Source: Spirochaetia bacterium (lineage in GTDB: Bacteria > Spirochaetota > Spirochaetia > CADAEX01). From it: a DNA stretch of 60,676 nt. How positions within the stretch are numbered: the first letter of the stretch is position 1; each line of letters opens with the position of its first letter. A program made the position numbers and the translations under genes. Shown here piece after piece: positions 20,294 to 51,833 of the stretch. The stretch spans positions 1 through 60,676 of the forward strand of contig JAVEZE010000001.1 in the NCBI GenBank assembly GCA_034003145.1. The letters run 5' to 3'. Below the pieces are notes generated by a model. It made no database searches, had not been told where the DNA came from, and worked only from the letters and a program-made list of their open reading frames with translations.

Positions 20294-20318
20294 TTATTTG
20301 ACTCCAATATTAACTTTA

Positions 20319-21089: not shown

Positions 21090-21229
21090 GGTTTCTCCTA
21101 CAGGATTTATCTTTATGATATTCCAGGTGTGTATCCGGTCTGGCCCTGATGCGCACCTTACAGTAAGATACCCCGAACCTTGCGGCACGGGGCATCTGTA
21201 TTAACATTTAATTACAAAAACCCCGATAA

Positions 21230-22108: not shown

Positions 22109-22136
22109 CTGTAAACCTCCATTGGTTAAATACTAT

Positions 22137-23033: not shown

Positions 23034-23075
23034 TATTCCTCCTGGCAAATTATCCGCCTATAAGTTATAAGTTAA

Positions 23076-24329: not shown

Positions 24330-24334
24330 TACAC

Positions 24335-25411
24335 CTACTCCTGGGGCTTTGAAATAACTTTTATCGCGCCGTCAATCCTGTTGTTGAATGTATCAAATGC
24401 CTCATTTATTTTAGCAATCGGGAATGTATGGGTAATAAGCGGCTTAAGATCAACAATCCCTTTATTTAAAAAAGTCGCTGCCCGTCCAACGTTTGCCCAT
24501 CCTTCGCCCCTTACAGTAAAAATATGCTTATTGTTAAGGGCAAGATCCTCAAAATCGGCAGGAAACGGTTTATGAGGGAAAGCAAGAAGGAGAATTTTTC
24601 CCATTCTTTTTGCTGATTTTATTGAAAGCCCAAGCCCTGCCTCAGAACCGGAAGCCTCTATCGCGAGGTCACACCCTTTACCGCCTGTTTCCTTCATTAT
24701 TATTTCAAGAGGATCCTGCTTTTTGGTATTGATGATAATATCGGCACCTGTCTTTTCAGCAATCTGCAGCCTTGAGTCTCTTGTGCCAAGCAGTATTATC
24801 TTTCCCGCGCCAAGAGCTCTTGCAGCCTGAACCGCGTTTAGACCCAGAGGTCCCGGGCCGATTATCACAATTGTGTCGCCTGCTATAAATCCGCCGATTG
24901 TCTCAAATCCGTATAATACGCATCCCAGGTTTGTCGCGAGGGATGCCTCATCAAAAGATACTTTGTCCGCTATTTTGTGAACTGTATTTATATGGTTTAT
25001 AACATACTGGGCATTGCCGCCGTTAGTGGTAAAACCGTTTGCCCTGTGCCCTTTGGCGGTATCACCGTAATTAAGGCATCCTGTGTAGTTTCCAAGGCGG
25101 CAATTCCTGCACCTGCCGCATCCGTTATGCGCCTCTACTGTTACCCGGTCGCCCACTGCGAACTCGTCAACCGTCTCACCAAGGGCAGCGACTGTTCCGG
25201 AATACTCATGTCCTATTATAAAATCCCCGTAGGGAGGCTGGCCCGGAAAAGGTTTGTGGATAAGCCCTGTATCAGAGCCGCACAATGCGCAGGACTCGAC
25301 TTTAATAAGTACATCTACCGGCCCAGGTGCCGGCACCTTCATCTCCTTGACTTCAAGTTTATCCGGCCCCATAAGGACAACAGCTTTCATAAATTCCGGA
25401 ATATTAGTCAT
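24335..25411 (-). CDS. MDR-family Zn-dependent dehydrogenase (sorbitol/threonine-DH-like)
   Basis: CGSD...GHEYSG, structural-Zn cluster GCGRCRNC and the GPGPLG fold. It is a clear paralog of the 41528-42598 product. Confidence 0.85.
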   Translation of the reverse strand: MTNIPEFMKAVVLMGPDKLEVKEMKVPAPGPVDVLIKVESCALCGSDTGLIHKPFPGQPPYGDFIIGHEYSGTVAALGETVDEFAVGDRVTVEAHNGCGRCRNCRLGNYTGCLNYGDTAKGHRANGFTTNGGNAQYVINHINTVHKIADKVSFDEASLATNLGCVLYGFETIGGFIAGDTIVIIGPGPLGLNAVQAARALGAGKIILLGTRDSRLQIAEKTGADIIINTKKQDPLEIIMKETGGKGCDLAIEASGSEAGLGLSIKSAKRMGKILLLAFPHKPFPADFEDLALNNKHIFTVRGEGWANVGRAATFLNKGIVDLKPLITHTFPIAKINEAFDTFNNRIDGAIKVISKPQE

Positions 25412-25417
25412 CAGATG

Positions 25418-26119
25418 TTATTCTCCTTCAATTATAATCTTGAACTCGTTTTCAACATCCACTATGTGATCATACATGTATGAAAAAGCCAGATGTTCAT
25501 CCCCAATGCTGATTGCCTTGAAAATCTTTTCATGAAAATCAAGTGATTTAGGCATTATATTGCTATACCTTTCAATCAGGACTACTGCCTGATTTTTCTT
25601 CATAAGATCCTTGAAGCTTTTAATAAAAGTCTCAAGAATTGTATTGCCTGAAGCTTCAAAAACAAGATCATGAAAACGGCTGTCATGAAGTATGAAATCA
25701 TCAACATTTCCTGCGCCGTTTTTCATCTCATCAAGCTCAAGCTCAAGCTTCTCAACCAAATCTTTATCAGCGCGCCTGGCGGCAAACCCTGCCAATGCCG
25801 GCTCTATAACTTTCCTTACTTCAATAATTTCAATTATATCCCTGTATTCATCAAGTTTGATTTCTACATCAGGTTTTAACTTTCCTTCTGTTACAAAGGT
25901 CCCGTTCCTTTTCCTTTCAACAAGTCCCATATGTATCAGAACTTTAAGTGCTTCACGCACAGTTCCCCGTCCGACACCCATGCTTTCTGCGAGTGACTCC
26001 TCCGCAGGCAGCCTTTGCCCTGTTTTAAGTCTTCTGCTTAAAATTTCGTTTTTGAGATATTCAACAATCTCTTCTGACATACTCACGCGGTCAATTTTTT
26101 TAAAATCCATACCTGTCAC
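25418..26119 (-). CDS. GntR-family transcriptional regulator, FadR subfamily (wHTH + FCD domain)
   Basis: The N-terminus LPAEESLAESMGVGRGTVREALKVL is a GntR wHTH. The C-terminal all-helical region of about 150 aa is typical of FCD domains. Confidence 0.85.
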   Translation of the reverse strand: MTGMDFKKIDRVSMSEEIVEYLKNEILSRRLKTGQRLPAEESLAESMGVGRGTVREALKVLIHMGLVERKRNGTFVTEGKLKPDVEIKLDEYRDIIEIIEVRKVIEPALAGFAARRADKDLVEKLELELDEMKNGAGNVDDFILHDSRFHDLVFEASGNTILETFIKSFKDLMKKNQAVVLIERYSNIMPKSLDFHEKIFKAISIGDEHLAFSYMYDHIVDVENEFKIIIEGE

Positions 26120-26137
26120 CTTTTTTAAAAATTATGC

Positions 26138-26182
26138 TTTGTATGACAATACTACTGTACCATCATTTTACCTAATTGTCAA
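26138..26182 (-). promoter_or_regulatory. promoter TTGACA-17-TACAGT with the dyad operator ATTGTCATACAAA 3 nt downstream (GntR autoregulation site)
   Basis: Minus strand: -35 at 26177-26182, -10 at 26154-26159 (preceded by TGG), dyad at 26138-26150. Confidence 0.6.
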
Positions 26183-26211
26183 GCTGAATACAACATTCTC
26201 CCTGCCTGTTC

Positions 26212-27252
26212 TCAAAGTTCTTTAAAAACTATCCTGCCGTAGATGCTGTCAAGCATAGAACCGTCAAAAACCTTATTTAAGGAAGACATTTCCATCTCAG
26301 ATGAGACAATCGGCTTCAGTGTACCGTTTTTAACATAATTTATCAGCTCAATTAATTCCTGTTTTGTACCAAGCCGGGAGCCTATAATTTCCCATTCATT
26401 GTAATGCATACCCAGGGCATCAAGCGGAACAGGCTTAAGAGGATCATACCCCATCAGAACAAGCTTGCCTCCCTTTTTCAGGCTTTTAAGCGCCCAGGGA
26501 AATGTCACTGCTGTACCTACTCCGTCAAGAACAACATCAGCGCCAAAACCTTCAGTCCATTCCCTGATTGCAGAAACAGGGTCCTGAGATTCCGGGTTAA
26601 ATACAACATCAGCCCCAAACCTCGTTGCTTCAGCCAGTGATTTATCCCTGATGTCAGCACCGGCAACTTCCGCACCAAGCATCTTGCCAAGCAAAACAGC
26701 ATGAAGGCCGAGTCCTCCAAGTCCGATGACAAGAACTTTTACGCCACTTTTTACTTTTCCAAGCGCTTTTAAGGCATGGTAAGGGGTAAGGACTGCATCA
26801 GGAAGGACAGCCATCTCTGCCCATAAGACCTTATGGTCATCAACAGGGCAGAAATTATATGCAGGGATTGCTATATATTCAGCAAATGCCCCGTCAAGCT
26901 CAAACCCTGTCCTTTTTATCTCAAAACAGATGTTCTCTCTTCCTGTTCTGCAAAGCCCGCAGTCCCTGCATGGTATGTAGTGATATACTATCCCCCTGTC
27001 ACCAGGTTTTAATCTTTTAACATTCTTTCCTGTCTCAACTATTTCCCCTGCCCCTTCATGTCCGGGGATATGGGGAAGCTTGATTATTCCGTCAAGTTTA
27101 CCGGTATATATTTTCATGTCTGTTCCGCAGATTCCTGCAGCTTTTACCCTTACAAGAACATCATCATCGCCGACCGGCGGCAGTGGAACATCTTTTAATA
27201 CCAGGGGGCTGTTATACTTTTCAAGAACCCAGGCTTTCATTGTATTTTTCAT
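26212..27252 (-). CDS. MDR-family Zn-dependent alcohol dehydrogenase
   Basis: CGTD, GHEGAG, CRDCGLCRTG and GLGGLG. I placed the start at ATG 27252 (MKNTMKAWVL), which follows a GAGG RBS. The track start at 27264 is a TTG. Confidence 0.85.
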   Translation of the reverse strand: MKNTMKAWVLEKYNSPLVLKDVPLPPVGDDDVLVRVKAAGICGTDMKIYTGKLDGIIKLPHIPGHEGAGEIVETGKNVKRLKPGDRGIVYHYIPCRDCGLCRTGRENICFEIKRTGFELDGAFAEYIAIPAYNFCPVDDHKVLWAEMAVLPDAVLTPYHALKALGKVKSGVKVLVIGLGGLGLHAVLLGKMLGAEVAGADIRDKSLAEATRFGADVVFNPESQDPVSAIREWTEGFGADVVLDGVGTAVTFPWALKSLKKGGKLVLMGYDPLKPVPLDALGMHYNEWEIIGSRLGTKQELIELINYVKNGTLKPIVSSEMEMSSLNKVFDGSMLDSIYGRIVFKEL

Positions 27253-27270
27253 TTTCAACCTCAATTTTCT

Positions 27271-31173: not shown

Positions 31174-32418
31174 TTAATATCCCATTACAGAAAGAGGAGG
31201 AAGAACTTCTTCTCCTCCGAATGAGTCGACCACAGTGAATAAATCCCAATTATTTTTCTTTTCAGCAGGGGTTTTCCCCTTTAAAAGAAAAGCGGTATGG
31301 TCATTTATCGGCTGTCTGTCTTTTCTGAAAATGTAGCTCCCTTTTATTGTGTCGATTTTTTTAGTCTCAAATATATTACTAACCTTTTCAGGATCAAATG
31401 TCCCTGCCTCTTCAACTGCCCCGAATATAAGCTTCGCGGCAAGGTATGCCGCAGTTCCCATATTATCCGGCGGCTCATTCCATCTTGCCATGTAGGCATC
31501 CGAGTATTTTTTTACCTTTTCAGCTACTGCCTTGTCTTTGAATCCTGTTAAATCATAATAAAACCACGCAAGCGCATAATGCCCGGCAAGAGCGTTCTCG
31601 GGAATCCCCTTGGCTACTATATTTGCGGTCCAGACATTAAAAATTGTGCTTACATCATAAAACCCAAGGTCATATGCCTGCTTAAGATTTGCTATCGCGT
31701 CTCCGCCGAACATTGTAGTGACAAAAACATCGGGTTTTAACCTGAGCGCCTTGTTTATGACTGCAGAATAATCAACAGTCCCTGCCGGCAGCTCTTCAAC
31801 CGCAACTATTTCTGTACCGTATTGTTTACACGCCGCTTCAAGCCCTTCCTGAATAACTGTACCCCATGAATCAGCTCTCTTCAGCAGAAAAATGGTTTTT
31901 TTACCCAGATTCTTCGCGATAGACTGGCCTGTAATATACCCGATGCTCCACGGTGTAAAAGTGGGAGTGTAGGAACATACAGCAGGATTTCCTGCCATAA
32001 AAGCGTCTTTCGCCGGCACAAAGCCAGGAACATATATAACAGGATTTATTTTTGTCTCTTCATTAAGTGCAGCAGACATGGGATTCCAGATTCCCCCTGT
32101 AAGTGCATCCATTCCCTGGTCCATCATTTCCCTGAATTTTCTCACCCCCACATCAAGCTTTGCCTGATCATCCTCTATCATTGATTCAACAGGAATCTTT
32201 CCCCAGGGCATATCAAGACCGCCGGCTGCGTTTATTTCTTCCACTGCAAGGATAAATGATTTTTTCTGGGTTTCTGCGACACCTGCAAAAGTGCCGCTCA
32301 ATGAAGAAGAAAAACCCATCTTGAAAACTGTGGGGTTTTCCTCTTCCTTCTTTCCTGCTGCGAATAGAACTGATGCGGCGCATATCAAAAGTATGGCAAA
32401 AAATAATTTTTTCTTCAT
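31174..32418 (-). CDS. Liv-type (periplasmic-binding-protein type 1) ABC substrate-binding protein, copy 2
   Basis: Signal peptide (LFAAGKKE). It shares long blocks with copy 1: FKMGF, ETQKK, GGLDMPWGK, AKLDVGVR and WNPMSAA. Confidence 0.8.
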   Translation of the reverse strand: MKKKLFFAILLICAASVLFAAGKKEEENPTVFKMGFSSSLSGTFAGVAETQKKSFILAVEEINAAGGLDMPWGKIPVESMIEDDQAKLDVGVRKFREMMDQGMDALTGGIWNPMSAALNEETKINPVIYVPGFVPAKDAFMAGNPAVCSYTPTFTPWSIGYITGQSIAKNLGKKTIFLLKRADSWGTVIQEGLEAACKQYGTEIVAVEELPAGTVDYSAVINKALRLKPDVFVTTMFGGDAIANLKQAYDLGFYDVSTIFNVWTANIVAKGIPENALAGHYALAWFYYDLTGFKDKAVAEKVKKYSDAYMARWNEPPDNMGTAAYLAAKLIFGAVEEAGTFDPEKVSNIFETKKIDTIKGSYIFRKDRQPINDHTAFLLKGKTPAEKKNNWDLFTVVDSFGGEEVLPPLSVMGY

Positions 32419-32459
32419 TTTTAATAAAACTCCTTAAAACCTTTTTCAGGAAATATTTT

Positions 32460-32531
32460 ACAGCCGCAGCCGGATGTGATACCCGGCGCTGCTGTAATTT
32501 TTTTCTCTGATATCAGTTCCCGGATATCAGA
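32460..32531 (-). other. two stem-loops between the tandem binding-protein genes
   Basis: Imperfect GC-rich hairpin at 32460-32495. Perfect 9-bp stem TCTGATATC (32506-32514) / GATATCAGA (32523-32531), 2 nt after the copy-1 stop codon. Confidence 0.55.
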
Positions 32532-32533
32532 AT

Positions 32534-33796
32534 CTAATAACCGAGTGATTTAAGTGAAGGAAGTGCTGATTCGCCGCCGAAAGATCCTATAACCTTAAAT
32601 ACATCATTGGGATCTTTCATTTCGTCTTTGGATTTCCCTTTTACAATAAACGCCAGGTAATCGCCGACAAGCTGCTGATCTTCCCTGAATTTCATTTTTC
32701 CTTTTACAGTATCAAACGTTGTTTCTTTCATTACTTTTGCTACAGCGACAGGATCAAAAGTTCCTGCTTTCTCTACTGATTCAAATATCATTTTTGCTGC
32801 CATGTATGAAATTGTTCCGTAAGCATCAGGCGGCTCGTTCCACATTTTCATGTGCGCCTCAGTATATGCCTTGGCCTTTTTCTCAAGCTCAGGATTACCA
32901 AAACCTTCCAGGTTGTAATAATAGAAATTAAGAGCGTAAAGCTCTTTAAGCGCGTCTGACGGTATTCCTTTTCCAACAACATTAGTTGTCCAGGTATTGA
33001 ACATTTTTGACTGTTTGTGAAGTCCCATATCATAAGCCTGTTTGAAGATTGCAATTGCATCTCCTCCAAACTGGCATGCCATAAATACGTCAGGTTTGAT
33101 TTCAAGCGCCTTGTTTATGGCTGATGAAAAATCAACTGTGCCGAGCGGATATTCAGCAAATCCTACAACTTCCCCGCCGTGCTCCGCGATTGCGGCTTTT
33201 AGCCCTTCAAATATTGTACTTCCCCATGAATCTGCCCTTGATACAAAAAAGATTTTTTTGGCGCCAAGTTCCTGGATAGCCGAAGCTCCCGCAAGATAAC
33301 CGATACTCCAGGGGGTAAACGCGACAGAAAAAGTTCCCACAGCCGGGTTTCCTTTTCTAAATGAATCAAGAGCTGGAACATTACCGGCAAGATACGGGAG
33401 AGGAGCGATCTTTGTTTCTTCATTTATTGCGGCAGACATCGGGTTCCAGACAGTACCTGTAAGGCCGTTGATACCTGCACCGACTAGCTCCCTGAACCTT
33501 CTGACTCCGACATCAAGTTTAGCCTCATCATCCTTTACCAGGGTCTCTATTTTAACCTTGCCCCATGGCATATCAAGGCCCCCTTTCGCGTTTACTTCCT
33601 CTGCCGCAAGGAGTGTCCCTTTTTTCTGGGTTTCACCTACAGCGGCAAATGATCCGCTTAATGATGTCATAAACCCCATTTTGAACTCGGCAGGTTTCGA
33701 ATCTTCTTTGGCGCCTCCTGCCGAAACACTGAAAACAGAAAACAGTACCATTATCAATGCCATAAGCAGAGATAGCAGTTTAATACTTCTTCTCAT
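32534..33796 (-). CDS. Liv-type ABC substrate-binding protein, copy 1
   Basis: 420 aa with a signal peptide. Paralogous to 31174-32418. It is the first gene of the transporter operon. Confidence 0.8.
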   Translation of the reverse strand: MRRSIKLLSLLMALIMVLFSVFSVSAGGAKEDSKPAEFKMGFMTSLSGSFAAVGETQKKGTLLAAEEVNAKGGLDMPWGKVKIETLVKDDEAKLDVGVRRFRELVGAGINGLTGTVWNPMSAAINEETKIAPLPYLAGNVPALDSFRKGNPAVGTFSVAFTPWSIGYLAGASAIQELGAKKIFFVSRADSWGSTIFEGLKAAIAEHGGEVVGFAEYPLGTVDFSSAINKALEIKPDVFMACQFGGDAIAIFKQAYDMGLHKQSKMFNTWTTNVVGKGIPSDALKELYALNFYYYNLEGFGNPELEKKAKAYTEAHMKMWNEPPDAYGTISYMAAKMIFESVEKAGTFDPVAVAKVMKETTFDTVKGKMKFREDQQLVGDYLAFIVKGKSKDEMKDPNDVFKVIGSFGGESALPSLKSLGY

Positions 33797-33821: not shown

Positions 33822-33865
33822 ATTGTATTACAATATTATTTTAGCACGACGTGGCTGGATGTCAA
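33822..33865 (-). promoter_or_regulatory. promoter TTGACA-16-TAAAAT with the perfect dyad ATTGTAATACAAT 3 nt downstream
   Basis: Minus strand: -35 at 33860-33865, -10 at 33838-33843 (preceded by TGC, an extended -10), dyad at 33822-33834. AGGAG RBS precedes the ATG at 33796. Confidence 0.65.
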
Positions 33866-33970: not shown

Positions 33971-34663
33971 TCAGAGAATAAAAAAGAGGAGTAAAGGGGT
34001 GATCAAGGCTGTTATTATTCCCGCGATTACCACAGCCATGCTGCTTACAGAGCCCTCAAGCATTCCCATTTCCACAGCACGGCCGGTACCGAGGATATGG
34101 GCTGATGTGCCGAGGGCAAGCCCTTTTGCGGCAGGGTTTTTTATACCGAAAATCTTGAACAGCAAGTCAGCTGTAAAAAGGCCTGCCATACCTGTAAAGA
34201 CAACTCCGGCAGCAGCCAATTCCTTGAATCCGCCAATTTTTTCAGCTATCCCCACAGCAAGCGGCATTGTGACTGATTTGGGAATAAGTGAAACATAGAT
34301 ATCAAATGGTATCCCCATCAATCTGCCGAGCCAGACAACTGCGGCAATTCCGGAGGCGCTTCCCGCGATAATGGAGATTATCATAACAGGCAGATATCTG
34401 CGGACAGAGGATAATTTAAGATATAAAGGAACAGCCAGAAACAAGGTTGCAAGCGGAAGAAAGGCAAATATAATTCCTCCCCCCTTCATATAACTTCCGA
34501 CAGGTATTTTGAATATGTAAAGCAGGATAATTATTGCAGCGCTTGCTGTTATTACAGGCTGAAGAAAAGCCTTCCCAGTTTTGAGATATAATTTCCTGAA
34601 TAAAACATACATGGAAAATGTGATAAAAAGTCCAAAAAGGGGATCTGATGCTACTGCTTTCAT
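33971..34663 (-). CDS. lrgB: LrgB/CidB-family membrane protein
   Basis: 230-aa polytopic protein. An ATGA overlap with the upstream 137-aa LrgA-like gene gives the canonical small-plus-large pair architecture. Confidence 0.75.
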   Translation of the reverse strand: MKAVASDPLFGLFITFSMYVLFRKLYLKTGKAFLQPVITASAAIIILLYIFKIPVGSYMKGGGIIFAFLPLATLFLAVPLYLKLSSVRRYLPVMIISIIAGSASGIAAVVWLGRLMGIPFDIYVSLIPKSVTMPLAVGIAEKIGGFKELAAAGVVFTGMAGLFTADLLFKIFGIKNPAAKGLALGTSAHILGTGRAVEMGMLEGSVSSMAVVIAGIITALITPLLLFFIL

Positions 34664-35073
34664 CCCTCACCCCCTTTGCCGGGATTTGATCTGCCGCTGG
34701 CGCTTCCAGGGGATGATCCGCCGCGTCCGTGAAATATTTTCATCAAAAGCTGAGCTGTAATCCCTGTAACAAGCATCACAATTATAGTCCCTGCAGCTAT
34801 CAGGAGGAATATTTTAAAAAGATAATGGCCGGCGTATCTGCCGATATCTGCGCTGCTTACAACAACCGGAATAAGGAAGAAAACAATATTATCAAGAAAA
34901 AAACCTGAAACATCAGCAATTGCTTCGTATTTTACAATATTTGAAAAAAGAAGGAGTGTCATAACAATGATCCCGATTACGCTTCCCGGTATCATGGGAA
35001 GCAACAATCTGGACAAAAGCTCACTTGCAAACGCAACTGCGGATGCAAGCGTGACTACAAAAAACACTTTCAT
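34660..35073 (-). CDS. lrgA: LrgA/CidA-family small membrane protein
   Basis: 137 aa with four predicted TM helices and a Gly/Ser/Pro-rich tail. Its start lies 3 nt after the CoADR stop codon. Confidence 0.7.
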   Translation of the reverse strand: MKVFFVVTLASAVAFASELLSRLLLPMIPGSVIGIIVMTLLLFSNIVKYEAIADVSGFFLDNIVFFLIPVVVSSADIGRYAGHYLFKIFLLIAAGTIIVMLVTGITAQLLMKIFHGRGGSSPGSASGRSNPGKGGEG

Positions 35074-35076
35074 TCT

Positions 35077-36807
35077 TTAGGTCTTGCCTGAAGCTGCGCT
35101 GATGCTCTGTGGCGCGGCTGAGGCTTCCAGCCTTATTTTTTCCCAGAAGTGAGTTGAAAACACGGTACCTCCGGATAAAACAGCAATTTTTTTAAATCCT
35201 GCTTTTTCGAGGATTTTATATGCGTTATACGCTCTTATACCTCTGCGGCAGACTATTGCGTATTCCTTGTCTTTATCAAGTTCACCGATCCTGTCAGACA
35301 GGTAAGTATTTTCAATGTGGATTGATCCCGGAATAGACCATTCTGCCACCTCATCATCTGTTCTGATATCAAGTATGATAACATCCCTGTTTTTCTCATC
35401 CGAGAAAAGATCAACAGGATGGACAGTCTTGACTCTTCCTGAAAGCTTGTTCCGCCCTGTATTTGAAGAGGCAATGGTTGATGCCATAGCGTTTGAAAAC
35501 GGTGGAGCATAGGCAAGATCAAGATTTGAAAGATCAAAAATTGTAGCGTTAAAGCTTATTGCGGTAACAAGGATATCTACCGGTTTATCCACGACACCCC
35601 AGCCGAAAACCTGCCCGCCGAGAACCCTGCCGCTTTTCTTTTCATATATAAGTTTGGTTATTATCTCTTTAAATCCAGGATAGTATCCTGCGCTGTCATT
35701 GCCGGGAACAATTACAGTATCATAGTCATATCCGCCAGCTTTGGCATCCTTTTCTGTAAGGCCTGTCTTTCCCGCTGTCATCTCAAAAACCTTGATTATC
35801 ATTGTGCCGAGAACTCCGGGGAAAACCTCTGTAGATCCTCCGAACCGTTTCTCTGCCATAATTCTGCCCATCTTGTTGGCGGTAGATCCGAGCGGGACCC
35901 AGCACTCTTTTCCTGTAATCCTGTTTTTCATTTCAACACAGTCGCCTACAGCGAAAATATCCTTGATATTTGTCTCAAAATTATCATCAACCTTTATTGC
36001 CCCCGCAATACCTGTTTTTATACCGCATCTTACAGCAATCTCTGAATTTGCTTTAACGCCTGCAGCCGCGACAACAAAATCCACATCAACATCGCCTCCG
36101 CTGCGCAGCGATACTTTTATCCTTCCGTCATCAAGCTGGGAAAAACCAGTTACCATCTCGCTGGTTTTTATTTGAAGCCCTTTCTGCTCCATAAAATATC
36201 TGATATAAAGTGATACATCATAGTCAAACCCGGCGAGAATCTGATCCTTCATTTCAACAACAACAGTCTCAATACCCATGTCAAATAAATTTTCGGCTGT
36301 TTCAATACCTATTAAACCTGATCCAATTACAAGGGCACGCCCTTTTTTTGCAGCAGTCTTTACTGCCGCGTCTTTTATTTTGTTGGAATCCCTGACTGTT
36401 CTCAGATTGTAAATACCGGGAAGGTCAGCGCCAGGAAGCGGAAGTGGAAATGGAATCGCGCCTGTAGCGATAACAAGGGTATCATATTCATACTTCTTCA
36501 GTTCACCGCTCTTTAAATCAAGGGCAGAAACAGTTTTGTTCCCGGGATCAATATCTTTGGCTTCTGTATTAAGCTCAACTTTAATGTCGCGGACTTTTTC
36601 AAACGATTCAGCTTTAACAATCTTTAACGCTTCTTCAGTTTCTATAACACCGCCTATATAATAAGGCAGTCCGCAGCCGGCATAGGAGATCATATCTTCA
36701 TTGGATAAAATTGTAATATCAAGGGACTGGTTCTCCCTTCTGGCTTTTGCCGCGGTTTTTGCACCCGCGGCGACACCGCCGATTACAAGCAGTTTTTCTT
36801 TTTTCAT
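35077..36807 (-). CDS. CoA-disulfide/persulfide reductase-type flavoprotein fused to a C-terminal rhodanese domain (CoADR-RHD)
   Basis: FAD fold GGVAAG, redox Cys in SYAGCGLPYY, second fold VIGSGLIG and a C-terminal rhodanese loop CRRGIRA. Confidence 0.8.
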   Translation of the reverse strand: MKKEKLLVIGGVAAGAKTAAKARRENQSLDITILSNEDMISYAGCGLPYYIGGVIETEEALKIVKAESFEKVRDIKVELNTEAKDIDPGNKTVSALDLKSGELKKYEYDTLVIATGAIPFPLPLPGADLPGIYNLRTVRDSNKIKDAAVKTAAKKGRALVIGSGLIGIETAENLFDMGIETVVVEMKDQILAGFDYDVSLYIRYFMEQKGLQIKTSEMVTGFSQLDDGRIKVSLRSGGDVDVDFVVAAAGVKANSEIAVRCGIKTGIAGAIKVDDNFETNIKDIFAVGDCVEMKNRITGKECWVPLGSTANKMGRIMAEKRFGGSTEVFPGVLGTMIIKVFEMTAGKTGLTEKDAKAGGYDYDTVIVPGNDSAGYYPGFKEIITKLIYEKKSGRVLGGQVFGWGVVDKPVDILVTAISFNATIFDLSNLDLAYAPPFSNAMASTIASSNTGRNKLSGRVKTVHPVDLFSDEKNRDVIILDIRTDDEVAEWSIPGSIHIENTYLSDRIGELDKDKEYAIVCRRGIRAYNAYKILEKAGFKKIAVLSGGTVFSTHFWEKIRLEASAAPQSISAASGKT

Positions 36808-37262
36808 TTACAGTGTTCCTCAATATCTTCAATTACCCATTCGCATACTTTCCGCACAAGCGGTTTGCATATATTTTCATGTACCTTTAGTTTTTCATCA
36901 TCAGTCGGCTGGGTTTTTTTAAGATCAAGCCCTGTAATATCAAGGCAGTTTATATTGCCGATATTTTCCTTGAATTTCGCGAGAAGCCGGTCGACTGCCT
37001 CATAAGCAGGGGCTCTTTCCTCATCTATGCTGTCGCGCCCGTATACAATACCAAGCGCCATTCCTCCTGCTGCAAGGCTTCCGCACATCATTCCGTTTCT
37101 CCCGAATCCTCCGCCGAACGGGGTAGCTATTCTCGGAATCAGCTCACTGTCAATTTCAAGATATTTAGCAAGTCCGTACAGGGTGGATTCGGCGCAGTTA
37201 TACCCGCCTGTGCTTCCGCTGTTGTAATATTTTATGCATTCATCACATTTATCTCTGCTCAT
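36804..37262 (-). CDS. C_GCAxxG_C_C family putative redox-active protein
   Basis: 152 aa with conserved cysteines in YNCAESTLYG, GMMCGSLAAG, INCLD and ICKPLVRKVCE. ATGA overlap with the CoADR-RHD start. Confidence 0.65.
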   Translation of the reverse strand: MSRDKCDECIKYYNSGSTGGYNCAESTLYGLAKYLEIDSELIPRIATPFGGGFGRNGMMCGSLAAGGMALGIVYGRDSIDEERAPAYEAVDRLLAKFKENIGNINCLDITGLDLKKTQPTDDEKLKVHENICKPLVRKVCEWVIEDIEEHCK

Positions 37263-37304: not shown

Positions 37305-38828
37305 TTATTTTTCATCGTTTTTGGGGGTACATTTCTCTGCCCCTTTTGACCATGCCTTTTTAAGTGAAGGCATTAAAAATGGAGCAGAAAGTGAAAAAAT
37401 TGAAACTATAATAAAAAACAGACTAATGGGATGCCTTACAAAGACCATCGGATTTCCCTGACTTATAATTAAAGACATCCTCAGGTGCTCCTCAAGATTC
37501 GGGCCCAGAATAAGGGCAAGAAGCAGGGGAACAACAGGAAAACCGTATTTTTTCATTAAAAAGGCAAGGATGCCGAAGAATATCATTATCCCTGTATCAA
37601 AAAAGGTGTTCCTGAGTGAATAAGAACCCACAACACAAAGCACTAGTATAATGGGAAGTAATATACGCTGAGGTACTTTCAGGATCCTTACCCAGAAATT
37701 GATGCTTGTAAAAGAAACTATCAGATTGAAAATATTTGCGATTAAAAACGCCCAGAAGATTGAAAAGACAAACTGGGGATTTGTCTCAAAAAGAAGAGGC
37801 CCGGGTATAAGGCCGTGAATCATCAAAGAACCAAGAAGGATAGCTGTAATGGGATCACCTGGAATTCCAAGTGTAAGCATCGGGATAAGAGCTCCGCCTC
37901 CAACTGCGTTATTGGCTGCCTCAGGCGCCGCGATACCGTCAGCTGAACCATTGCCGTAATTATCCTTATCCTTTGAAATCTTTTTAGACGCATCATAGGC
38001 GAGAAAAACAGCAATTGCCCCACCCGCACCCGGTATTGCCCCGATTCCAGTGCCTATAAAGGAGCCGACCAGGATTGCCTTCATTCTTTTTCCCACATCT
38101 GAAAACTTTGGCAATATGCCGGTAATTTTTTTATCATACTTAGGGATTACACTTCCCTTGTTTGTGAGTCCCGATATAATTTGAGGAATCGCAAACAGCC
38201 CTATCATTGCGGGAAGAAAAGGAATTCCAGCCTGGAGGTCAAGCATGCCGAATGTAAACCGGGGCGTTCCGGTCATGGAATCAAGACCTGCTGTCATGAT
38301 AATAAGTCCCAAAAGCCCTGCTATAACACCTTTAAGCAAAGATTGCTGCCCGAAGCTGCAGATCAGTGTAATACCGAGCAGAACAAGGGCGAAAAGCTCA
38401 GGCGCGCCGAATTTAAGCGCGGCTTTCGCGAGAAACGGGGATATCGCAGAAAGACATATAAGGCCGATTATTCCTCCGATAAAAGAGGCGATAATTGCTG
38501 TGCCGAGCGCCTGCCCCGCCTTGCCCTGCTGCGCCATGATATGGCCGTCAATAGCAGTGGCAGAGGCTGACGGTGTTCCGGGAATATTAAGAAGAATCGC
38601 GGAAAAAGATCCTCCTGTCATTCCTGCCGCGTAAAGGCCCAAAAGGAGGCAGACAGAGGTAACAGGATCAAGTGAGAAAGTTATTGGAAGCAGGAGGACC
38701 ATTCCAAGAGAAATTGTCAGCCCTGGAGTGGCTCCTATAAAAAGGCCAAATGAAACACCTAAAAGCGATGCAATAATATTTTGCAGTTTCAACACTTCAA
38801 ACATTGAAGCCAATATATATTCTAACAT
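37305..38828 (-). CDS. tctA: tripartite tricarboxylate transporter permease TctA
   Basis: 507-aa, 12-TM-type protein with the Gly-rich motifs typical of TctA. It follows the TctB-like and TctC-like genes. Confidence 0.85.
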   Translation of the reverse strand: MLEYILASMFEVLKLQNIIASLLGVSFGLFIGATPGLTISLGMVLLLPITFSLDPVTSVCLLLGLYAAGMTGGSFSAILLNIPGTPSASATAIDGHIMAQQGKAGQALGTAIIASFIGGIIGLICLSAISPFLAKAALKFGAPELFALVLLGITLICSFGQQSLLKGVIAGLLGLIIMTAGLDSMTGTPRFTFGMLDLQAGIPFLPAMIGLFAIPQIISGLTNKGSVIPKYDKKITGILPKFSDVGKRMKAILVGSFIGTGIGAIPGAGGAIAVFLAYDASKKISKDKDNYGNGSADGIAAPEAANNAVGGGALIPMLTLGIPGDPITAILLGSLMIHGLIPGPLLFETNPQFVFSIFWAFLIANIFNLIVSFTSINFWVRILKVPQRILLPIILVLCVVGSYSLRNTFFDTGIMIFFGILAFLMKKYGFPVVPLLLALILGPNLEEHLRMSLIISQGNPMVFVRHPISLFFIIVSIFSLSAPFLMPSLKKAWSKGAEKCTPKNDEK

Positions 38829-38893: not shown

Positions 38894-39349
38894 CTATATG
38901 ATCATTCCGCCTGGCAGCTGAACCCTGAAAACAACCACAAACAGTAAATATACTGAAACAGAGACCAGGACAGATGTAAGAAACATCTCTTTCAGGTTTG
39001 CTGCTCCCATCATTTTCATCAGCAGAAATACAGCAACCGGGGTTATCATTGCAAAACCGATAATCCTCATCATAAAAACATAACCAATTATAAGCAAAAC
39101 AATTTTAGCAATTCCCAATATTTCATATTTATGTATTACATAATCGCATTTTTCAAGACACGGTCTGATTAAGGAAGTAACAAGAAATGCTGTATTAATT
39201 ATCATCAATAAAACAAAAAGCAGGGTAGGCATAAAACTGCTTTTCAAGGTTCCCGGCATATTTCTATCCGGAAGCATAAGAATCTGCCAGAAATACCAGA
39301 TGGCAAATATATAAATAATAGCAGATAAAATAATATTAATTTTTTTCAT
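38894..39349 (-). CDS. tctB: tripartite tricarboxylate transporter small subunit TctB
   Basis: 151 aa with four TM helices, positioned between tctC and tctA. Confidence 0.7.
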   Translation of the reverse strand: MKKINIILSAIIYIFAIWYFWQILMLPDRNMPGTLKSSFMPTLLFVLLMIINTAFLVTSLIRPCLEKCDYVIHKYEILGIAKIVLLIIGYVFMMRIIGFAMITPVAVFLLMKMMGAANLKEMFLTSVLVSVSVYLLFVVVFRVQLPGGMII

Positions 39350-39489: not shown

Positions 39490-40491
39490 TTATTTTTTAA
39501 TCAATCCGGCAGCATCCATTGCTGCGTAAACCCTTTTGTACTGATCAGCAAGAACTACTTCAAAATCAGCCCTCCCCTTGAAATCAACAACAAAACCGGT
39601 TTTATTTGCAAGATCCTGGAATTCTTTGCTCTCTGATGCTGCCTTGAATGCTTTTTCAAGCATAGCTGATACAGCAGGATCTGTCCCCTTTGGAAGGCTT
39701 ACACCCCTGAAAAGATCCATGACAACATCATAGCCCTGTTCCTTTAACGAAGGAACGTCAGGAAATGAAGGATCTCTTTTGGCTGTTGATACACCCAGGA
39801 TTCTGGCTTTACCTGCTTTTACCTGGGGAGCAATTTCAGGAAGAGGAACACATACTGCTTCCACTTCGCCGCCCAAAAGACTTGCGATTCTTCTTTCAGC
39901 GCCTAAAGGAACATGGATAGCCTGGACTCCTGCCGCCTGCTGGAACATTACACCGGTAAGATGTGTTCCGCTTCCAGTACCCGCGTTGCCTATTTTAAGC
40001 TTTCCAGGGTTCTTTTTTGCCCAGTCTACAAGATCATCTGCTGTTTTCCAGGGCGAGTCGGCAAGAACTGCTATCGGCATTGATGTATAACCTACAACAC
40101 AGATGTTATCAAAATCTGTGTAAGGAAATGGAACATTTCCCATAATTGTTGTGGTAAGAATTGAAGTTGAGTTCCAGGCTGTTGTATATCCGTCCGGTTC
40201 AGCTTTGTGAAGCTCACCGTACATGATTCCGCCGCCTGCTCCCGGCCTGTTTACAGGGACAACCGGCTCACCGATAATATTATCCATTGAGCTTACAAGA
40301 GCTCTTCCAAGAAGGTCGGCATCACCGCCGGCTCCGAACGGGATAAGAAAACTTATCGGTTTTTCAGGAAACTTTGCACTCATTTCCGCAGCCTGGGGAG
40401 CTGCTTCGCTGCCGCCTGCCGCAAAAACGAAAGAAACAGATGCAATCAATAAAACTGCTGCAACTGTTATTCTCATAAAATTTTTCATCAA
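39490..40491 (-). CDS. tctC: Bug/TctC-family tripartite tricarboxylate transporter substrate-binding protein
   Basis: 333 aa with a signal peptide (FAAGGSE). NRPGAGGGIM fits the TctC PGAGG motif. Confidence 0.85.
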   Translation of the reverse strand: MMKNFMRITVAAVLLIASVSFVFAAGGSEAAPQAAEMSAKFPEKPISFLIPFGAGGDADLLGRALVSSMDNIIGEPVVPVNRPGAGGGIMYGELHKAEPDGYTTAWNSTSILTTTIMGNVPFPYTDFDNICVVGYTSMPIAVLADSPWKTADDLVDWAKKNPGKLKIGNAGTGSGTHLTGVMFQQAAGVQAIHVPLGAERRIASLLGGEVEAVCVPLPEIAPQVKAGKARILGVSTAKRDPSFPDVPSLKEQGYDVVMDLFRGVSLPKGTDPAVSAMLEKAFKAASESKEFQDLANKTGFVVDFKGRADFEVVLADQYKRVYAAMDAAGLIKK

Positions 40492-40567: not shown

Positions 40568-41488
40568 TTATTCCTGCGCTGCCGCCCAGGCCAGCTTTAT
40601 CACCCGTTTTGCCTGGGCAATAATTGCTTCTGAATATTCTTCCATTAGCAGCGGCCTCACCTCAACACTAACAACAGGGCGCTTTTCAGGAGAGACAAGT
40701 TTTCTTTCAAGAAGAAGCCTGAAAAAATCCGCAACCTCTTTAACATCAGTCTCACCGCCGGGAATCCCGAACCTCGGCTGAAGATCACCGTAAAGGGGAT
40801 GCTTCCTGTCTCTCATTATGCAGTTGCCAAGATGAAAATGCATTGGAAATTTTTCAACAAGAGGGATTACATCTTCCGGTTTTTCCCTTAAAAGAGGAAA
40901 ATGTGAAAGATCTGCAAGAACGCCGAAATTTTTATACTTTGCATATACTTCATCTGCTACATCTGCGGCATCGCTGAAAAGGCCGATAAGCGCTTTTTTA
41001 TCAATATCCCGGTCAAATATTTTAAGATAAAGCATCGCGTCGCCGAAATCGCTGTTATATTCACAGAGCTCTGAAAGCGAATCAACAAAGATTTTCTTTG
41101 CCTCTCCCCTTTTTTCATCACCAGGATCTTTTCCCGAAAGGACACGGATTGATGTCGCCCCGATATGATATGCTTCAGCGATCCCTTTCTTTACACCCTC
41201 AATTGCTTTCCGTCTTTCTGCCTTGTCAAAGGAATTGAGATTAAGCTTTTGTGATAATATCCTCGGCTGGCAGGCATAGCATACCTTCATTGCTGATATT
41301 TCAAGAAGTTTTCTTACTTCGCTTCTTTTTTTGTCATCCTTGATCCAGCCTATCTCGACCGCTGTCCAGAAATCATCTTCCACAAGCTTTTTAAGCGATT
41401 CAATTATTGTCCCGCCTCCGTCAACAATTTCGGGGAAAGCCTTGAAATGGACAATCCCAAGATCCATATATCTATAAATATCTCTCAT
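40568..41488 (-). CDS. xylose-isomerase-like TIM-barrel protein (sugar phosphate isomerase/epimerase family)
   Basis: 306 aa. The call rests on the overall alternating beta/alpha pattern and His/Asp/Glu-rich ligand positions (HFHLGN, SVEVRP). This is a weaker, family-level call. Confidence 0.6.
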   Translation of the reverse strand: MRDIYRYMDLGIVHFKAFPEIVDGGGTIIESLKKLVEDDFWTAVEIGWIKDDKKRSEVRKLLEISAMKVCYACQPRILSQKLNLNSFDKAERRKAIEGVKKGIAEAYHIGATSIRVLSGKDPGDEKRGEAKKIFVDSLSELCEYNSDFGDAMLYLKIFDRDIDKKALIGLFSDAADVADEVYAKYKNFGVLADLSHFPLLREKPEDVIPLVEKFPMHFHLGNCIMRDRKHPLYGDLQPRFGIPGGETDVKEVADFFRLLLERKLVSPEKRPVVSVEVRPLLMEEYSEAIIAQAKRVIKLAWAAAQE

Positions 41489-41527: not shown

Positions 41528-42598
41528 TCACGGATGGACTACAACCTTGATGGCCCCTTCCTTCCTTCCCATAAATACATCAAAAGCCTCATTTATCTGG
41601 TCAAGTTTAAAAGAGTGGGTAATAATTTCCTTTCCGCTAACCTTTCCCTCTCTCATAAGCTCAAGTCCCCTGTGGACACACTGCCTGCCTTCGCCCCTGA
41701 TCGTAAAAATATTGTTCATATTTTGAACAGCAAGCCCTACATCAATGGTAACAGGATCCTCAAAATGGGCAAGAAGAGTAATATCTCCCCCTTTCCTTAC
41801 TGCCCTCAAGGCAAGCTGGAATGCATCTGTTGTACCCGAGGCAAGAAGAACAAGGTCTGCGCCGTATCCGCCTGTAAGTGATTTGACAAAGGCAATTGCA
41901 TCTTCCTCTCTTACATTGACTGTGTGTTCTGCCCCAAGTTTTTTTCCAAGATCAAGCCTTTCCTTTCTGGTTCCTGCGAGAATCACCTTACCGGCACCCA
42001 GTGCTTTCGCACACTGGACTGCCATCAGTCCTATGGACCCCGGCCCTATTACAAGAACTGACTCGCCGACAATAAACCCCCCGTTCCGTGAAATGCCGAA
42101 AAGGGGTGTGCCTACAGTTGTAATCATTGTAGCTTCGTCAAAAGAGATATTATCCGGGATAAGACTAATTGTATTAACATGATTTACAGCGTATTCAGCA
42201 AAACCACCGTTTGTCGTAAAACCGTTTGCGATATGCCCCTTGTCCTTGTTACCGTAGTTTAAGCACGCGGTCTGTTTTCCGTCGAGGCAGTTCTTGCATC
42301 TTCCGCACCCTTTATGCACCTCAACAGTTACCCTGTCGCCTATGTTAAACTCATCTACCGAGGAACCTTTTTTGACAATTATTCCGGCATATTCATGTCC
42401 GATGATGAAATCTCCCATGGGAGGCTGTTTAAGCATTCCCCTGGTTATAATTTTTACGTCGCCGCCGCATATAGAACATGACTCAACTTTGATCAGAACT
42501 TCATCCTCACCAGGTGACGGAACAGGCCTTTCGACCACTCTTACATCATTCCAGTCAAAAAGAACCGCAGCCTTCATTTTTTCAGGCACATTCATCAA
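41528..42598 (-). CDS. MDR-family Zn-dependent dehydrogenase, paralog of 24335-25411
   Basis: CGGD...GHEYAG, GCGRCKNC and GPGSIG. It shares blocks with the paralog: QPPxGDFIIGHEY, CLNYG..KGH.ANGFTTNGG, IFT.RGEG and INEAFD. Confidence 0.85.
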   Translation of the reverse strand: MMNVPEKMKAAVLFDWNDVRVVERPVPSPGEDEVLIKVESCSICGGDVKIITRGMLKQPPMGDFIIGHEYAGIIVKKGSSVDEFNIGDRVTVEVHKGCGRCKNCLDGKQTACLNYGNKDKGHIANGFTTNGGFAEYAVNHVNTISLIPDNISFDEATMITTVGTPLFGISRNGGFIVGESVLVIGPGSIGLMAVQCAKALGAGKVILAGTRKERLDLGKKLGAEHTVNVREEDAIAFVKSLTGGYGADLVLLASGTTDAFQLALRAVRKGGDITLLAHFEDPVTIDVGLAVQNMNNIFTIRGEGRQCVHRGLELMREGKVSGKEIITHSFKLDQINEAFDVFMGRKEGAIKVVVHP

Positions 42599-42627
42599 AT
42601 TCCCCCATATTAGTTATTGTTTTTTTT

Positions 42628-42681
42628 ATTGTACGACAATTGGACTGTATTATTTTATGTCTGAATATTTTGTTTTGTCAA
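42628..42681 (-). promoter_or_regulatory. promoter TTGACA-18-TAAAAT with the dyad ATTGTCGTACAAT 11 nt downstream
   Basis: Minus strand: -35 at 42676-42681, -10 at 42652-42657, dyad at 42628-42640. It lies in the divergent spacer shared with the plus-strand cupin gene. Confidence 0.6.
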
Positions 42682-42796
42682 GGAAAATCTGCCTTCTTTA
42701 CTTGAAGAAAGGTAGAATCTTATTTAATAATAGTATTAAAGTATGAAAATTGCTAATTCAAGGATTAAAATAGACTTATTTTTACAGGAGATGAAC

Positions 42797-46508: not shown

Positions 46509-47564
46509 TTAATCAAATTTTATCATTACTTTTCTTGCGTTAGCCTTGTCATGACAGGCAATATCAAAAGCTTTGTGGATATCGGCAAATTTGAATCTGT
46601 GGGTATTTAAGGCCTTGAAGTCATAATTGGCCTTGATCCTGCTCAGGAATTTTATAGTCCTCGGCATGAAAGTTTTTGTGCCGCCAGATCCGACTATACT
46701 TAAGTTTTTCCAGATAACCTTTCCAAGTTCGGCTGAAACTTTCCGGCCTATCGAGTGCCCGACAAATCCTACACGGCAGCTGTGCCCTGCAATATCAAAA
46801 ACTGATGCAATACCCTTATCATTACCTGAACATTCAACAATTACAGAAGGACCTTTTCCTTTGGTCAGCTTATTTATAGATTCAACTACTTTTCCGTCGG
46901 ACGGATCCACAACATGATCAGCTCCATATTTTAATGCTGTTTCCCTGCGGCTTGCCAGAGGATCAACAACTATAACCATGGCATTTGATGCCTTTGCAGT
47001 CATGGTCGCGGAAAGCCCTATAGGGCCTGCTCCCAATACAACAACATCATCGCTTGCATCAAGATATCCTCCATTTCCCCATACTCCCCAATAACCTACA
47101 GAGAAAGTCTCAACCCAGGCTCCAAGCTCATAATCCCAGTCATCAGGAAATGGATGGGTATACTGTTCTTCAAGTATCATGTATTCACCCATGGCGCCGG
47201 GAGAATCCGGCCTGAATCCCAGTTCCCTCATATTAAGACATGCTGAAGGCATAAGTCCGTTTTTACAGTTTTCACATTTTCCGCATGCCATTACACAATC
47301 GCCGGTAACTTTCATCCCTTTTTTGATGCTAGTTACCTTGCTTCCTGTTTCAACGACTTCTCCTGCCCATTCGTGCCCGGGTGTATAGGGTGCTATATCA
47401 TATCGCCCTTCTGCAGATTCTCCCTCAAAACATTCCACATCAGATCCGCAGATGCCGACAGCATGCATCTTTATCAATACCTGGTCATCCCTCAATGCGG
47501 GAAGTTCTACTTCTTCAACCCTTAAGTCCTTAGGACCGTATAGAAAAGCAATTTTAGCTTTCAT
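46509..47564 (-). CDS. MDR-family Zn-dependent dehydrogenase (sorbitol-DH-like)
   Basis: CGSD, GHEWAG, CGKCENC and GAGPIG. It is the last gene of the operon. Confidence 0.85.
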   Translation of the reverse strand: MKAKIAFLYGPKDLRVEEVELPALRDDQVLIKMHAVGICGSDVECFEGESAEGRYDIAPYTPGHEWAGEVVETGSKVTSIKKGMKVTGDCVMACGKCENCKNGLMPSACLNMRELGFRPDSPGAMGEYMILEEQYTHPFPDDWDYELGAWVETFSVGYWGVWGNGGYLDASDDVVVLGAGPIGLSATMTAKASNAMVIVVDPLASRRETALKYGADHVVDPSDGKVVESINKLTKGKGPSVIVECSGNDKGIASVFDIAGHSCRVGFVGHSIGRKVSAELGKVIWKNLSIVGSGGTKTFMPRTIKFLSRIKANYDFKALNTHRFKFADIHKAFDIACHDKANARKVMIKFD

Positions 47565-47578
47565 ATTATTTTTCTCCT

Positions 47579-49596: not shown

Positions 49597-49604
49597 TATT
49601 TCTC

Positions 49605-50576: not shown

Positions 50577-50614
50577 AACTTTATTCTCCTTATAAAACTT
50601 ATATTTTTTATATT

Positions 50615-51733: not shown

Positions 51734-51833
51734 TTAACACTCCTTAAGGATTTGACTGTAGAAAAAACCCAACATGCGGAAGGCTATTCAGCAATGGGAG
51801 GTACAGTACAAGGTTTTTTCATCACCCATTAAT

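Follow-up and report, generated by a model that had tools for sequence, protein, structure and literature searches.

A CoADR-rhodanese reductase gene beside a C_GCAxxG gene in a spirochaete carbohydrate-acid operon, with lrgAB restricted to a narrow lineage

Genes for a predicted persulfide reductase, a small cysteine-rich protein and an LrgAB-type membrane pair lie end to end in a Spirochaetia bacterium (assembly GCA_034003145.1, contig JAVEZE010000001.1), which raises the question of whether all four belong to one functional unit or were brought together in steps. The window, that is, the whole stretch of 60,676 nucleotides analysed here, carries them on its minus strand in the order C_GCAxxG_C_C family gene, gene for a flavoprotein in which a coenzyme A (CoA) disulfide reductase is fused to a rhodanese domain (CoADR-RHD), lrgA and lrgB. 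Three window proteins have cluster mates that are annotated as belonging to a metagenome-assembled genome of an uncultured Spirochaetales bacterium. The conservation of the four genes among relatives is nested: the C_GCAxxG gene is constant within an operon of tctCBA transporter and alcohol dehydrogenase (ADH) genes, the reductase gene is present in some loci and absent from others, and lrgAB is confined to a single narrow lineage. The best overall reading, which we hold with about even confidence, is that the reductase was recruited beside the C_GCAxxG protein in NADH-producing carbohydrate-acid operons, where it would protect CoA and the C_GCAxxG protein, LrgAB being an accessory carrier.

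All four open reading frames (ORFs) are intact, and the gene positions and junctions of a first-pass annotation of this DNA agree with the ORF list and the strand sequence. The stop codon of the C_GCAxxG gene and the start codon of the flavoprotein gene overlap in an ATGA at 36804-36807; the flavoprotein gene ends in a TAA at 35077-35079, followed by a 3-nt 'aga' spacer (35074-35076) and the lrgA start codon at 35073; lrgA and lrgB overlap in another ATGA at 34660-34663. The four gene identities likewise hold, with Pfam matches above gathering scores. All four genes are under purifying selection relative to a 92%-identical relative, with ratios of nonsynonymous to synonymous divergence (dN/dS) of 0.03-0.17 in a comparison in which dS, at about 0.9-1.4, is nearly saturated. 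The tight coupling of the proposed four-gene module was borne out, but the unit extends further than proposed, these genes being the 3' tail of a nine-gene, presumably co-transcribed operon that runs Zn-ADH, TIM-barrel protein, tctC, tctB, tctA, C_GCAxxG, CoADR-RHD, lrgA and lrgB.

Genomic contexts were gathered for homologues of each of the four genes, the closest relatives coming from searches of encoding contigs and of metagenomes. Five loci of one narrow lineage carry the full set of four, or as much of it as the contig shows: the window, L001 (CoADR 92% and LrgB 85% identical to the window), L084 (77% and 58%, with a 93-nt gap between the reductase gene and lrgA), L092 (75% over the C-terminus of CoADR, 70% for LrgB) and L095 (C_GCAxxG 94% identical). 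Because the order recurs in four other contigs, the adjacency is neither a chance one nor peculiar to this genome. Loci L002, L003 and L085 have the order ADH-TIM-tctCBA-C_GCAxxG-CoADR_RHD followed by a solute-binding-protein gene and lack lrgAB; their CoADR is 55-59% and their flanking genes are 72-82% identical to those of the window, and no remnant of lrgA or lrgB was detected by tblastn (E <= 1e-3) in the 92-300 nt 3' of the reductase gene. Four more loci (L093, L094, L098 and L099) carry a C_GCAxxG gene of the same clade (57-66% identical) with neither reductase nor lrgAB. Genes of the tct system lie beside it in L093, L094 and L099, and in L098 the only other genes shown are those for an ADH and a solute-binding protein. 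The flanking genes of these loci, including those of L093, match the window no less well than do those of L002, L003 and L085 (TctA 72-74%, ADH 74-76%). Most relatives that show the C_GCAxxG gene have it 3' of tctA or of an adjacent ADH gene, and in relatives it overlaps tctA or begins no more than 28 nt away.

The C_GCAxxG gene would thus form the oldest layer of the arrangement, as the constant companion of the tctCBA/ADH operon; the reductase gene would have been recruited directly 3' of it in some lineages, and lrgAB would have joined only in the narrow lineage of the window. A fixed pairing of a persulfide reductase with LrgAB is contradicted by the absence of LrgAB from L002, L003 and L085, its presence being limited to the window, L001, L084, L092 and L095. 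Late gain of lrgAB is mildly favoured over a joint gain that the sister lineage later reversed, because lrgAB is absent from every other CoADR-RHD context examined.

A second and unrelated context supports the link between the reductase and the C_GCAxxG protein. In metagenome loci L106 (identical to L110), L109 and L113, a C_GCAxxG gene, whose product is about 40% identical, and a CoADR-RHD gene lie in an operon with a complete phosphotransferase system (PTS), which reads PTS EI, EIIA, EIIB and EIIC (GAT family), 2-hydroxyacid dehydrogenase, C_GCAxxG, HPr, CoADR-RHD, SorC-type regulator and RuBisCO-like protein. The L106 reductase keeps both catalytic cysteines, is not sister to the spirochaete clade and finds its best matches among Firmicute enzymes (40-42%), so that its recruitment would have been a separate one. 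L117 is the same PTS operon, with neighbours 77-84% identical, without the reductase, and LrgAB is absent from this context. Judged from these sequences, CoADR-RHD has been placed beside C_GCAxxG at least twice, both times in operons that combine uptake with an NAD-dependent dehydrogenase, and each time with variable presence of the reductase. As a separate observation, the RuBisCO-like protein encoded in the L106 operon (4499-14987) is of form IV and is found there together with a predicted persulfide reductase.

Beyond these close relatives, species-representative genomes supplied 80 diverse CoADR-RHD loci (among the matches listed, 35-46% identical), which were scanned with a 10-kb reach using phmmer and our own profile hidden Markov models. 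A general pairing with LrgAB was rejected, as LrgA, LrgB or TctA lay within 10 kb in 0 of the 80; together with the lack of the reductase in L093, L094, L098 and L099, this also disposes of the expectation that all four genes travel together. C_GCAxxG was met once, 7 kb away, plus one weak match, and the usual neighbours, at 72 diverse loci, are regulators of the LysR and ArsR types and NIR_SIR-type Fe-S proteins. A family-wide partner of C_GCAxxG was also sought and rejected: about 70 more distant C_GCAxxG loci have heterogeneous neighbours (M42/M20 peptidases, archease and others). The C_GCAxxG/CoADR-RHD link is recurrent but not family-wide.

The closest relatives of the spirochaete reductases outside the phylum are Firmicute CoADR-RHD proteins (49-50% identical), whose genes are followed by TusA and DrsE_2 (DsrE-like) genes. 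These cassettes (L086-L089, e.g., Biomaibacter acetigenes) resemble the window in placing the enzyme beside small cysteine-bearing proteins; they differ in that their partners are known sulfur carriers located downstream, whereas the window has an all-alpha C_GCAxxG protein upstream and lacks TusA and DsrE. As the genes that normally accompany CoADR-RHD serve sulfur carriage or sulfur redox chemistry, the C_GCAxxG protein is a plausible partner. A further syntenic copy, on metagenome contig L100 (LQAH01000174.1, 6786-11165), has tctC, tctB, tctA and CoADR-RHD each split into several short ORFs, which reflects either decay of this copy or an assembly with many frameshifts.

The nine genes, the region that probably holds their promoter and the probable 3' boundary of the operon are as follows (positions of the window).

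42599..42742, no strand: divergent intergenic region, probable promoter region of the nine-gene operon (ORF layout and Pfam of the flanks)
41528..42598, minus: Zn-dependent alcohol/polyol dehydrogenase, operon gene 1 (ADH_N and ADH_zinc_N)
40568..41488, minus: xylose-isomerase-like TIM-barrel protein of the sugar/keto-acid epimerase/isomerase type (PF01261; weak match to 5-keto-L-gluconate epimerase IolO)
39490..40491, minus: tctC, solute-binding receptor of a tripartite tricarboxylate transporter (PF03401, E 2e-52)
38894..39349, minus: tctB, small membrane subunit (PF07331)
37305..38828, minus: tctA, large permease subunit (PF01970, E 5e-150)
36804..37262, minus: C_GCAxxG_C_C family protein, 152 aa (PF09719, 88.3 bits, cut-off 27; TIGR01909, 55.3 bits, cut-off 47.4)
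35077..36807, minus: CoADR-rhodanese fusion flavoprotein, 576 aa, predicted NAD(P)H-dependent CoA-persulfide/polysulfide reductase (Pfam domains, solved homologues)
34660..35073, minus: lrgA-like small membrane protein, 137 aa (PF03788, 68.1 bits, gathering score 28; hydrophobic segments)
33971..34663, minus: lrgB-like membrane protein, 230 aa (PF04172, 209.9 bits over the full length, gathering score 25)
33838..33865, minus: sigma-70-like promoter site TTGACA-16-TAAAAT with TG (best scan score, 11/12 matches; consensus match only)

The operon probably starts at the divergent region upstream of the Zn-ADH gene, because the genes beyond it, a plus-strand cupin/hydrolase pair recognised from Pfam and ORF layout, point the other way. 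From the ADH gene to tctA the successive gaps are 39, 76, 140 and 65 nt. Only 42 nt separate tctA from the C_GCAxxG gene; they contain a GGAGG ribosome-binding site, and the promoter scan found no good sigma-70-like site in them, in keeping with the first-pass description, which placed the four genes immediately after tctA and saw no obvious promoter of their own. At the other end, lrgB is followed by a 174-nt gap that holds the top promoter-like match of the region and then by a solute-binding-protein gene (32534-33796); the sigma-70-like site probably marks the start of that next transcription unit and thereby the 3' boundary of the operon. The Zn-ADH, which shows sub-threshold similarity to threonine dehydrogenase and to scyllo-inosose 3-dehydrogenase IolM, is syntenic in L001, L002, L003, L085, L093 and L096, and the TIM-barrel protein is 79-95% identical across the syntenic loci.

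What the flavoprotein does can be predicted from its domains and solved homologues. Pfam matches above gathering scores cover residues 5-294 (PF07992), 339-442 (PF02852) and 474-547 (PF00581), the last being the rhodanese domain, at about 35167-35388. The redox motif SYAGCGLPYY and the rhodanese loop CRRGIRA, both pointed out in the first-pass annotation, contain Cys45 (codon 36673-36675) and Cys520 (codon 35248-35250), which are invariant in 18 aligned homologues of 44-91% identity. The architecture named there, that of CoADR-RHD persulfide reductases, also stands: full-length matches were obtained to Archaeoglobus fulgidus NoxA-3 (6pfz, E 4e-113), Bacillus anthracis CoADR-RHD (3icr, E 7e-105) and Shewanella loihica Npsr (3nta, E 1e-91), and the Enterococcus faecalis CoA-persulfide reductase (CoAPR; 8a56, E 2e-97) matched over query residues 5-539. 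The equivalog cut-offs of the canonical CoA-disulfide reductase were missed (TIGR03385/NF007123, 391.6 against a cut-off of 578.8 bits and 343.9 against 458), and the protein should be classed with the rhodanese-fused subfamily rather than as a plain CoADR. By sequence, the protein is established as a member of the CoADR-RHD/persulfide-reductase family, and its activity is predicted from this. The window protein shares the two-cysteine, FAD and bound-CoA design of 3ICR, 3NTA and 6PFZ; it differs from them in being about 40% identical or less and in a C-terminal extension of about 25 residues found only in its LrgAB-linked relatives. In the 18-sequence alignment this extension (about 15-25 residues; residues ~552-576, 35077-35150) is common to the reductases of lrgAB-bearing loci (window, P0001 and P0002) and absent from the lrgAB-less sister clade and from Firmicute homologues.

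In E. faecalis CoAPR, a persulfide forms on the rhodanese cysteine, the pantetheine arm of bound CoA moves it about 27 Å and delivers it to the cysteine beside FAD, and H2S is then released (PMC9405070). Having the same CoADR domain, C-terminal rhodanese and both catalytic cysteines, the window enzyme would be expected to catalyse the same reaction, CoASSH + NAD(P)H -> CoASH + H2S (PMC9405070), the study that also provides the rationale of CoASSH poisoning; polysulfide is reduced by Npsr (PMC5573963). The setting of the two enzymes differs. E. faecalis CoAPR belongs to a cst-like operon controlled by CstR, whereas the window operon lacks persulfide sensors, CstR included, as well as RhdA/RhdB sulfurtransferases, and its reductase gene stands within a carbohydrate-acid uptake operon beside the C_GCAxxG gene and lrgAB. 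More broadly, the operon and its scanned flanks contain no CstR/CsoR, BigR/ArsR, SqrR, rhodaneses, PDO, SQR or TauE of the kind that marks a cst-type operon, and the scanned ORFs of the window contain no other sulfur gene and no persulfide-sensing regulator. The operon seems to be under carbon-source rather than persulfide control.

The putative partner is the C_GCAxxG protein. C23, C60, C106 and C132 are the four family cysteines, invariant in 23 sequences, and the spirochaete clade adds an N-terminal CxxC (C6, C9) and C140. A cysteine pattern separating reductase-linked from unlinked members was looked for and rejected, the CxxC and C140 being present in unlinked P0276 and P0277 as well. An AlphaFold2 model built from the 23 sequences is all-alpha, with a predicted local distance difference test score (pLDDT) of 91 and a predicted template modelling score (pTM) of 0.87. 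No PDB relative was found by sequence search, nor a fold relative of the model in the PDB (best Foldseek match E 0.97). The name C_GCAxxG_C_C turned up in only six papers, and the literature consists of annotations, two of these papers giving the family name in tables: one lists it among prokaryotic selenoprotein families (PMC9312934), and the other, a proteome survey of D. biacutus, reports an acetone-induced member together with a Zn-dependent dehydrogenase of nearby locus tag (PMC4103992).

Joined together, these elements suggest how the pair may work. By analogy with solved homologues, NAD(P)H would reduce the FAD of the reductase; Cys520 would accept sulfane sulfur, whether the donor is polysulfide, a low-molecular-weight persulfide or a cysteine of the C_GCAxxG protein in its persulfidated or oxidised state; bound CoA would relay the sulfur to Cys45 beside the flavin, and H2S and a free thiol would leave. 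The reductase would in this way use NADH from the dehydrogenases of the operon to keep CoA and the cysteine-rich C_GCAxxG protein free of sulfane sulfur or disulfides in a sulfidic habitat. We infer this thiol-keeping role because small cysteine carriers usually accompany the enzyme, because it has been recruited twice to C_GCAxxG, and because the operon seems to be controlled by carbon source. Effects of sulfur reductases that draw on NAD(P)H on redox balance have been proposed for fermenting Thermotoga (PMC9431562).

The place of LrgAB in this scheme is probably peripheral. Neither protein reaches any NCBIfam equivalog cut-off (e.g., TIGR00659, 167.5 against 249.7; NF003155, 42.9 against 136), and therefore no substrate can be transferred by orthology from Staphylococcus aureus LrgAB or Escherichia coli YohJK. 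The window LrgA is 72% identical to that of L001 and 49% to that of L084, and the cassette LrgB proteins form a clade of their own (at least 58% identical), with next relatives at 42%. LrgAB homologues transport pyruvate (PMC5626966, PMC6790026, PMC12632267, PMC8805020). Like the pyruvate transporters Bacillus subtilis PftAB and the LrgAB of Streptococcus mutans and S. aureus, the window pair is an overlapping two-gene lrgA-lrgB unit with full-length Pfam matches; unlike them, it lies within a catabolic operon, and its LrgB shares no more than 42% identity with any LrgB from outside the cassette. Since homologues carry pyruvate and the surrounding island has an aldolase-type enzyme and many transporters, a carboxylate carrier is the simplest reading, and LrgAB is most likely an accessory small-carboxylate carrier of the pyruvate type for the carbon pathway, with no sulfur-specific partnership with the reductase. 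Two other ideas were tried and dropped. A sulfur link of the nearest LrgAB pairs outside the cassette (L090 and L091, other spirochaetes) was not found, as these stand beside moaABC-type genes and a major facilitator superfamily (MFS) transporter, and a holin or prophage role finds no phage context anywhere in the window. No LytSR/LytST-type system or CidR was seen among the scanned ORFs of the window, whose regulators are of the GntR/FCD and ROK types. LrgA evolves fastest of the four genes (dN/dS 0.17) and, at 137 aa compared with 125-129 aa in relatives, ends in a Gly/Ser/Pro-rich tail, HGRGGSSPGSASGRSNPGKGGEG (residues ~115-137, 34660-34730).

The idea put forward in the first-pass annotation, that LrgAB transports a sulfur-bearing acid or is under redox control, gained no positive support in its own right, and we consider it improbable. 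Spelled out as a dedicated reactive-sulfur module, it would have LrgAB moving a thiol or sulfane-sulfur acid (e.g., 3-mercaptopyruvate or 3-mercaptolactate) that the rhodanese desulfurates, or LrgAB being controlled by C_GCAxxG and the reductase, and in this form too it seems rather unlikely to us. Adjacency and coupling are kept under purifying selection in five loci down to 58% identity in LrgB and 75% in CoADR, this LrgAB clade occurs only at this position, the reductases of the LrgAB-bearing loci share the C-terminal extension that the sister clade lacks, and the 2-hydroxyacid dehydrogenase and aldolase-type enzyme of the island could in principle process mercapto-acids. However, the syntenic sister loci and the PTS context do without LrgAB, as do the surroundings of the 80 listed diverse reductase loci. 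Transport of sulfur compounds is not known for any LrgAB homologue, a literature search for 'persulfide reductase' and 'LrgA' together found no paper, and the scanned neighbourhood offers neither another sulfur gene nor a persulfide sensor. At the opposite extreme, the reductase and lrgAB may have landed fortuitously where an operon end between two transporter operons tolerates insertions, each gene being generic and compaction having made the overlaps. Their variable presence among otherwise syntenic loci, the frequency of ATGA overlaps in any bacterial operon and the location at the junction of two transport operons fit this explanation; we nevertheless regard it as improbable, because the reductase stands beside C_GCAxxG in two unrelated operons, which is unlikely by chance for families rare in each other's neighbourhoods, and because the gene order has persisted under purifying selection through synonymous divergence that has reached saturation.

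A close rival, somewhat less improbable than these two but still unlikely in our judgement, shares the C_GCAxxG/reductase pairing and differs as to its purpose: the reductase, with C_GCAxxG as helper, would mainly re-oxidise dehydrogenase NADH by reducing environmental polysulfide or S0 to H2S ('facilitated fermentation') instead of protecting thiols. Both recruiting contexts are uptake-plus-NAD-dehydrogenase operons (Zn-ADH/TctCBA and 2-hydroxyacid dehydrogenase/PTS), the window is rich in dehydrogenases, its regulators are apparently of a carbon type (GntR/FCD) rather than persulfide sensors, and precedents exist in the Thermotoga NAD(P)H sulfur/polysulfide reductases (PMC9431562) and in polysulfide reduction by Npsr (PMC5573963). 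Yet no polysulfide uptake or sulfur-carrier system lies nearby, Firmicute CoADR-RHD enzymes act in low-flux detoxification of CoA persulfide (PMC9405070), and sister lineages lacking the enzyme break down the same substrate. Protection of CoA and the C_GCAxxG protein, with LrgAB as an accessory carrier, is the reading we prefer, and several observations weigh against it in turn. Stepwise gain of lrgAB and joint gain with loss in the sister lineage are equally parsimonious; LrgAB has been kept beside the reductase despite large divergence, which could reflect a specific link; loci with C_GCAxxG and no reductase imply that its primary role is independent of the enzyme; only two contexts of juxtaposition were found, against some 70 other distant C_GCAxxG loci with unrelated neighbours; and all IolM/IolN/IolO matches, which bear on the substrate of the island, lie far below NCBIfam cut-offs.

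CoADR-RHD is known mainly as a stress-regulated detoxification enzyme accompanied by rhodanese, TusA or DsrE proteins. Here it occurs in two unrelated uptake-and-dehydrogenase operons that are apparently governed by carbon source, and in both it lies next to C_GCAxxG. The recurrent pair offers a first concrete and cheap test of the role of the uncharacterised and structurally novel C_GCAxxG_C_C proteins, namely whether they are substrates or sulfur carriers of the neighbouring reductase, and it suggests a link between sugar-acid catabolism and sulfane-sulfur reduction in fermenters of sulfidic habitats. It is tempting to speculate further, although we think it rather doubtful, that the widespread, cysteine-rich and sometimes selenocysteine-containing C_GCAxxG_C_C proteins are protein-thiol redox or sulfane-sulfur carriers with CoADR-RHD as their dedicated NAD(P)H-dependent reductase. 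Such a pair would be a new two-component thiol/persulfide relay, on the model of thioredoxin and thioredoxin reductase or of CoADR-RHD and TusA/DsrE, coupling dehydrogenase NADH to sulfane-sulfur reduction in the carbohydrate-acid operons of anaerobes, and LrgAB would move a product of that chemistry in this lineage. The case of LrgAB also carries a caution, as a tight, translationally coupled adjacency can be young and lineage-restricted and need not be a fixed functional module.

The operon is embedded in a large carbohydrate catabolic island that fills the window, as read from Pfam matches of the scanned ORFs. The island encodes at least six Zn-ADHs, two Gfo/Idh/MocA oxidoreductases, one short-chain dehydrogenase/reductase (SDR), one 2-hydroxyacid dehydrogenase, three TIM-barrel isomerase-like proteins, two creatininase-family hydrolases, a DHDPS-family aldolase-type enzyme and a UPF0261 protein, together with two ABC systems, the tripartite tricarboxylate transporter and GntR/FCD and ROK regulators. 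No Rfam family (riboswitch or leader RNA) and no tRNA was found in the window. Its ADH, creatininase-family and TIM-barrel genes find their best named NCBIfam matches in the Thermotoga-type inositol route (IolM, IolN and IolO). With that pathway and with tctCBA systems the window shares the Zn-ADH, creatininase-family and TIM-barrel genes and a complete tctCBA set within the operon and island; the Iol matches, lying far below the equivalog cut-offs, set it apart from the former. We know of no Thermotoga-type inositol pathway or tctCBA system that includes a C_GCAxxG protein or a persulfide reductase. The island may be read as catabolising some cyclitol or keto-sugar acid.

Several features of the island stand apart from the operon. 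Paralogous sets of Zn-ADH (IolM-like), creatininase-family (IolN-like), TIM-barrel (IolO-like) and Gfo/Idh/MocA (IolG-like) genes are repeated at 16804-27264 and 46509-53825, and their substrates are probably uncharacterised cyclitols or keto-sugar acids. At the island edge, 16804-19175 holds an NfnAB-like pair, in which a GltD-like subunit that depends on NADPH accompanies an FAD/NAD-binding one of the 'sulfide/dihydroorotate dehydrogenase-like' type, and which could contribute to keeping NADH, NADPH and ferredoxin in balance for the dehydrogenases; just upstream of it lie two tandem nitroreductase-family genes (15553-16723, plus strand). Two tandem paralogous Peripla_BP_6 solute-binding-protein genes (31174-33796) precede a single ABC permease/ATPase set, a duplication also present in L001 and L084, one copy being found in L002, L003 and L085. 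Finally, a 418-aa Zn-ADH ORF (47579-48835) overlaps the upstream TIM-barrel gene (48775-49596) by 61 nt, and its Pfam match begins at residue 70; its true start is probably an internal codon.

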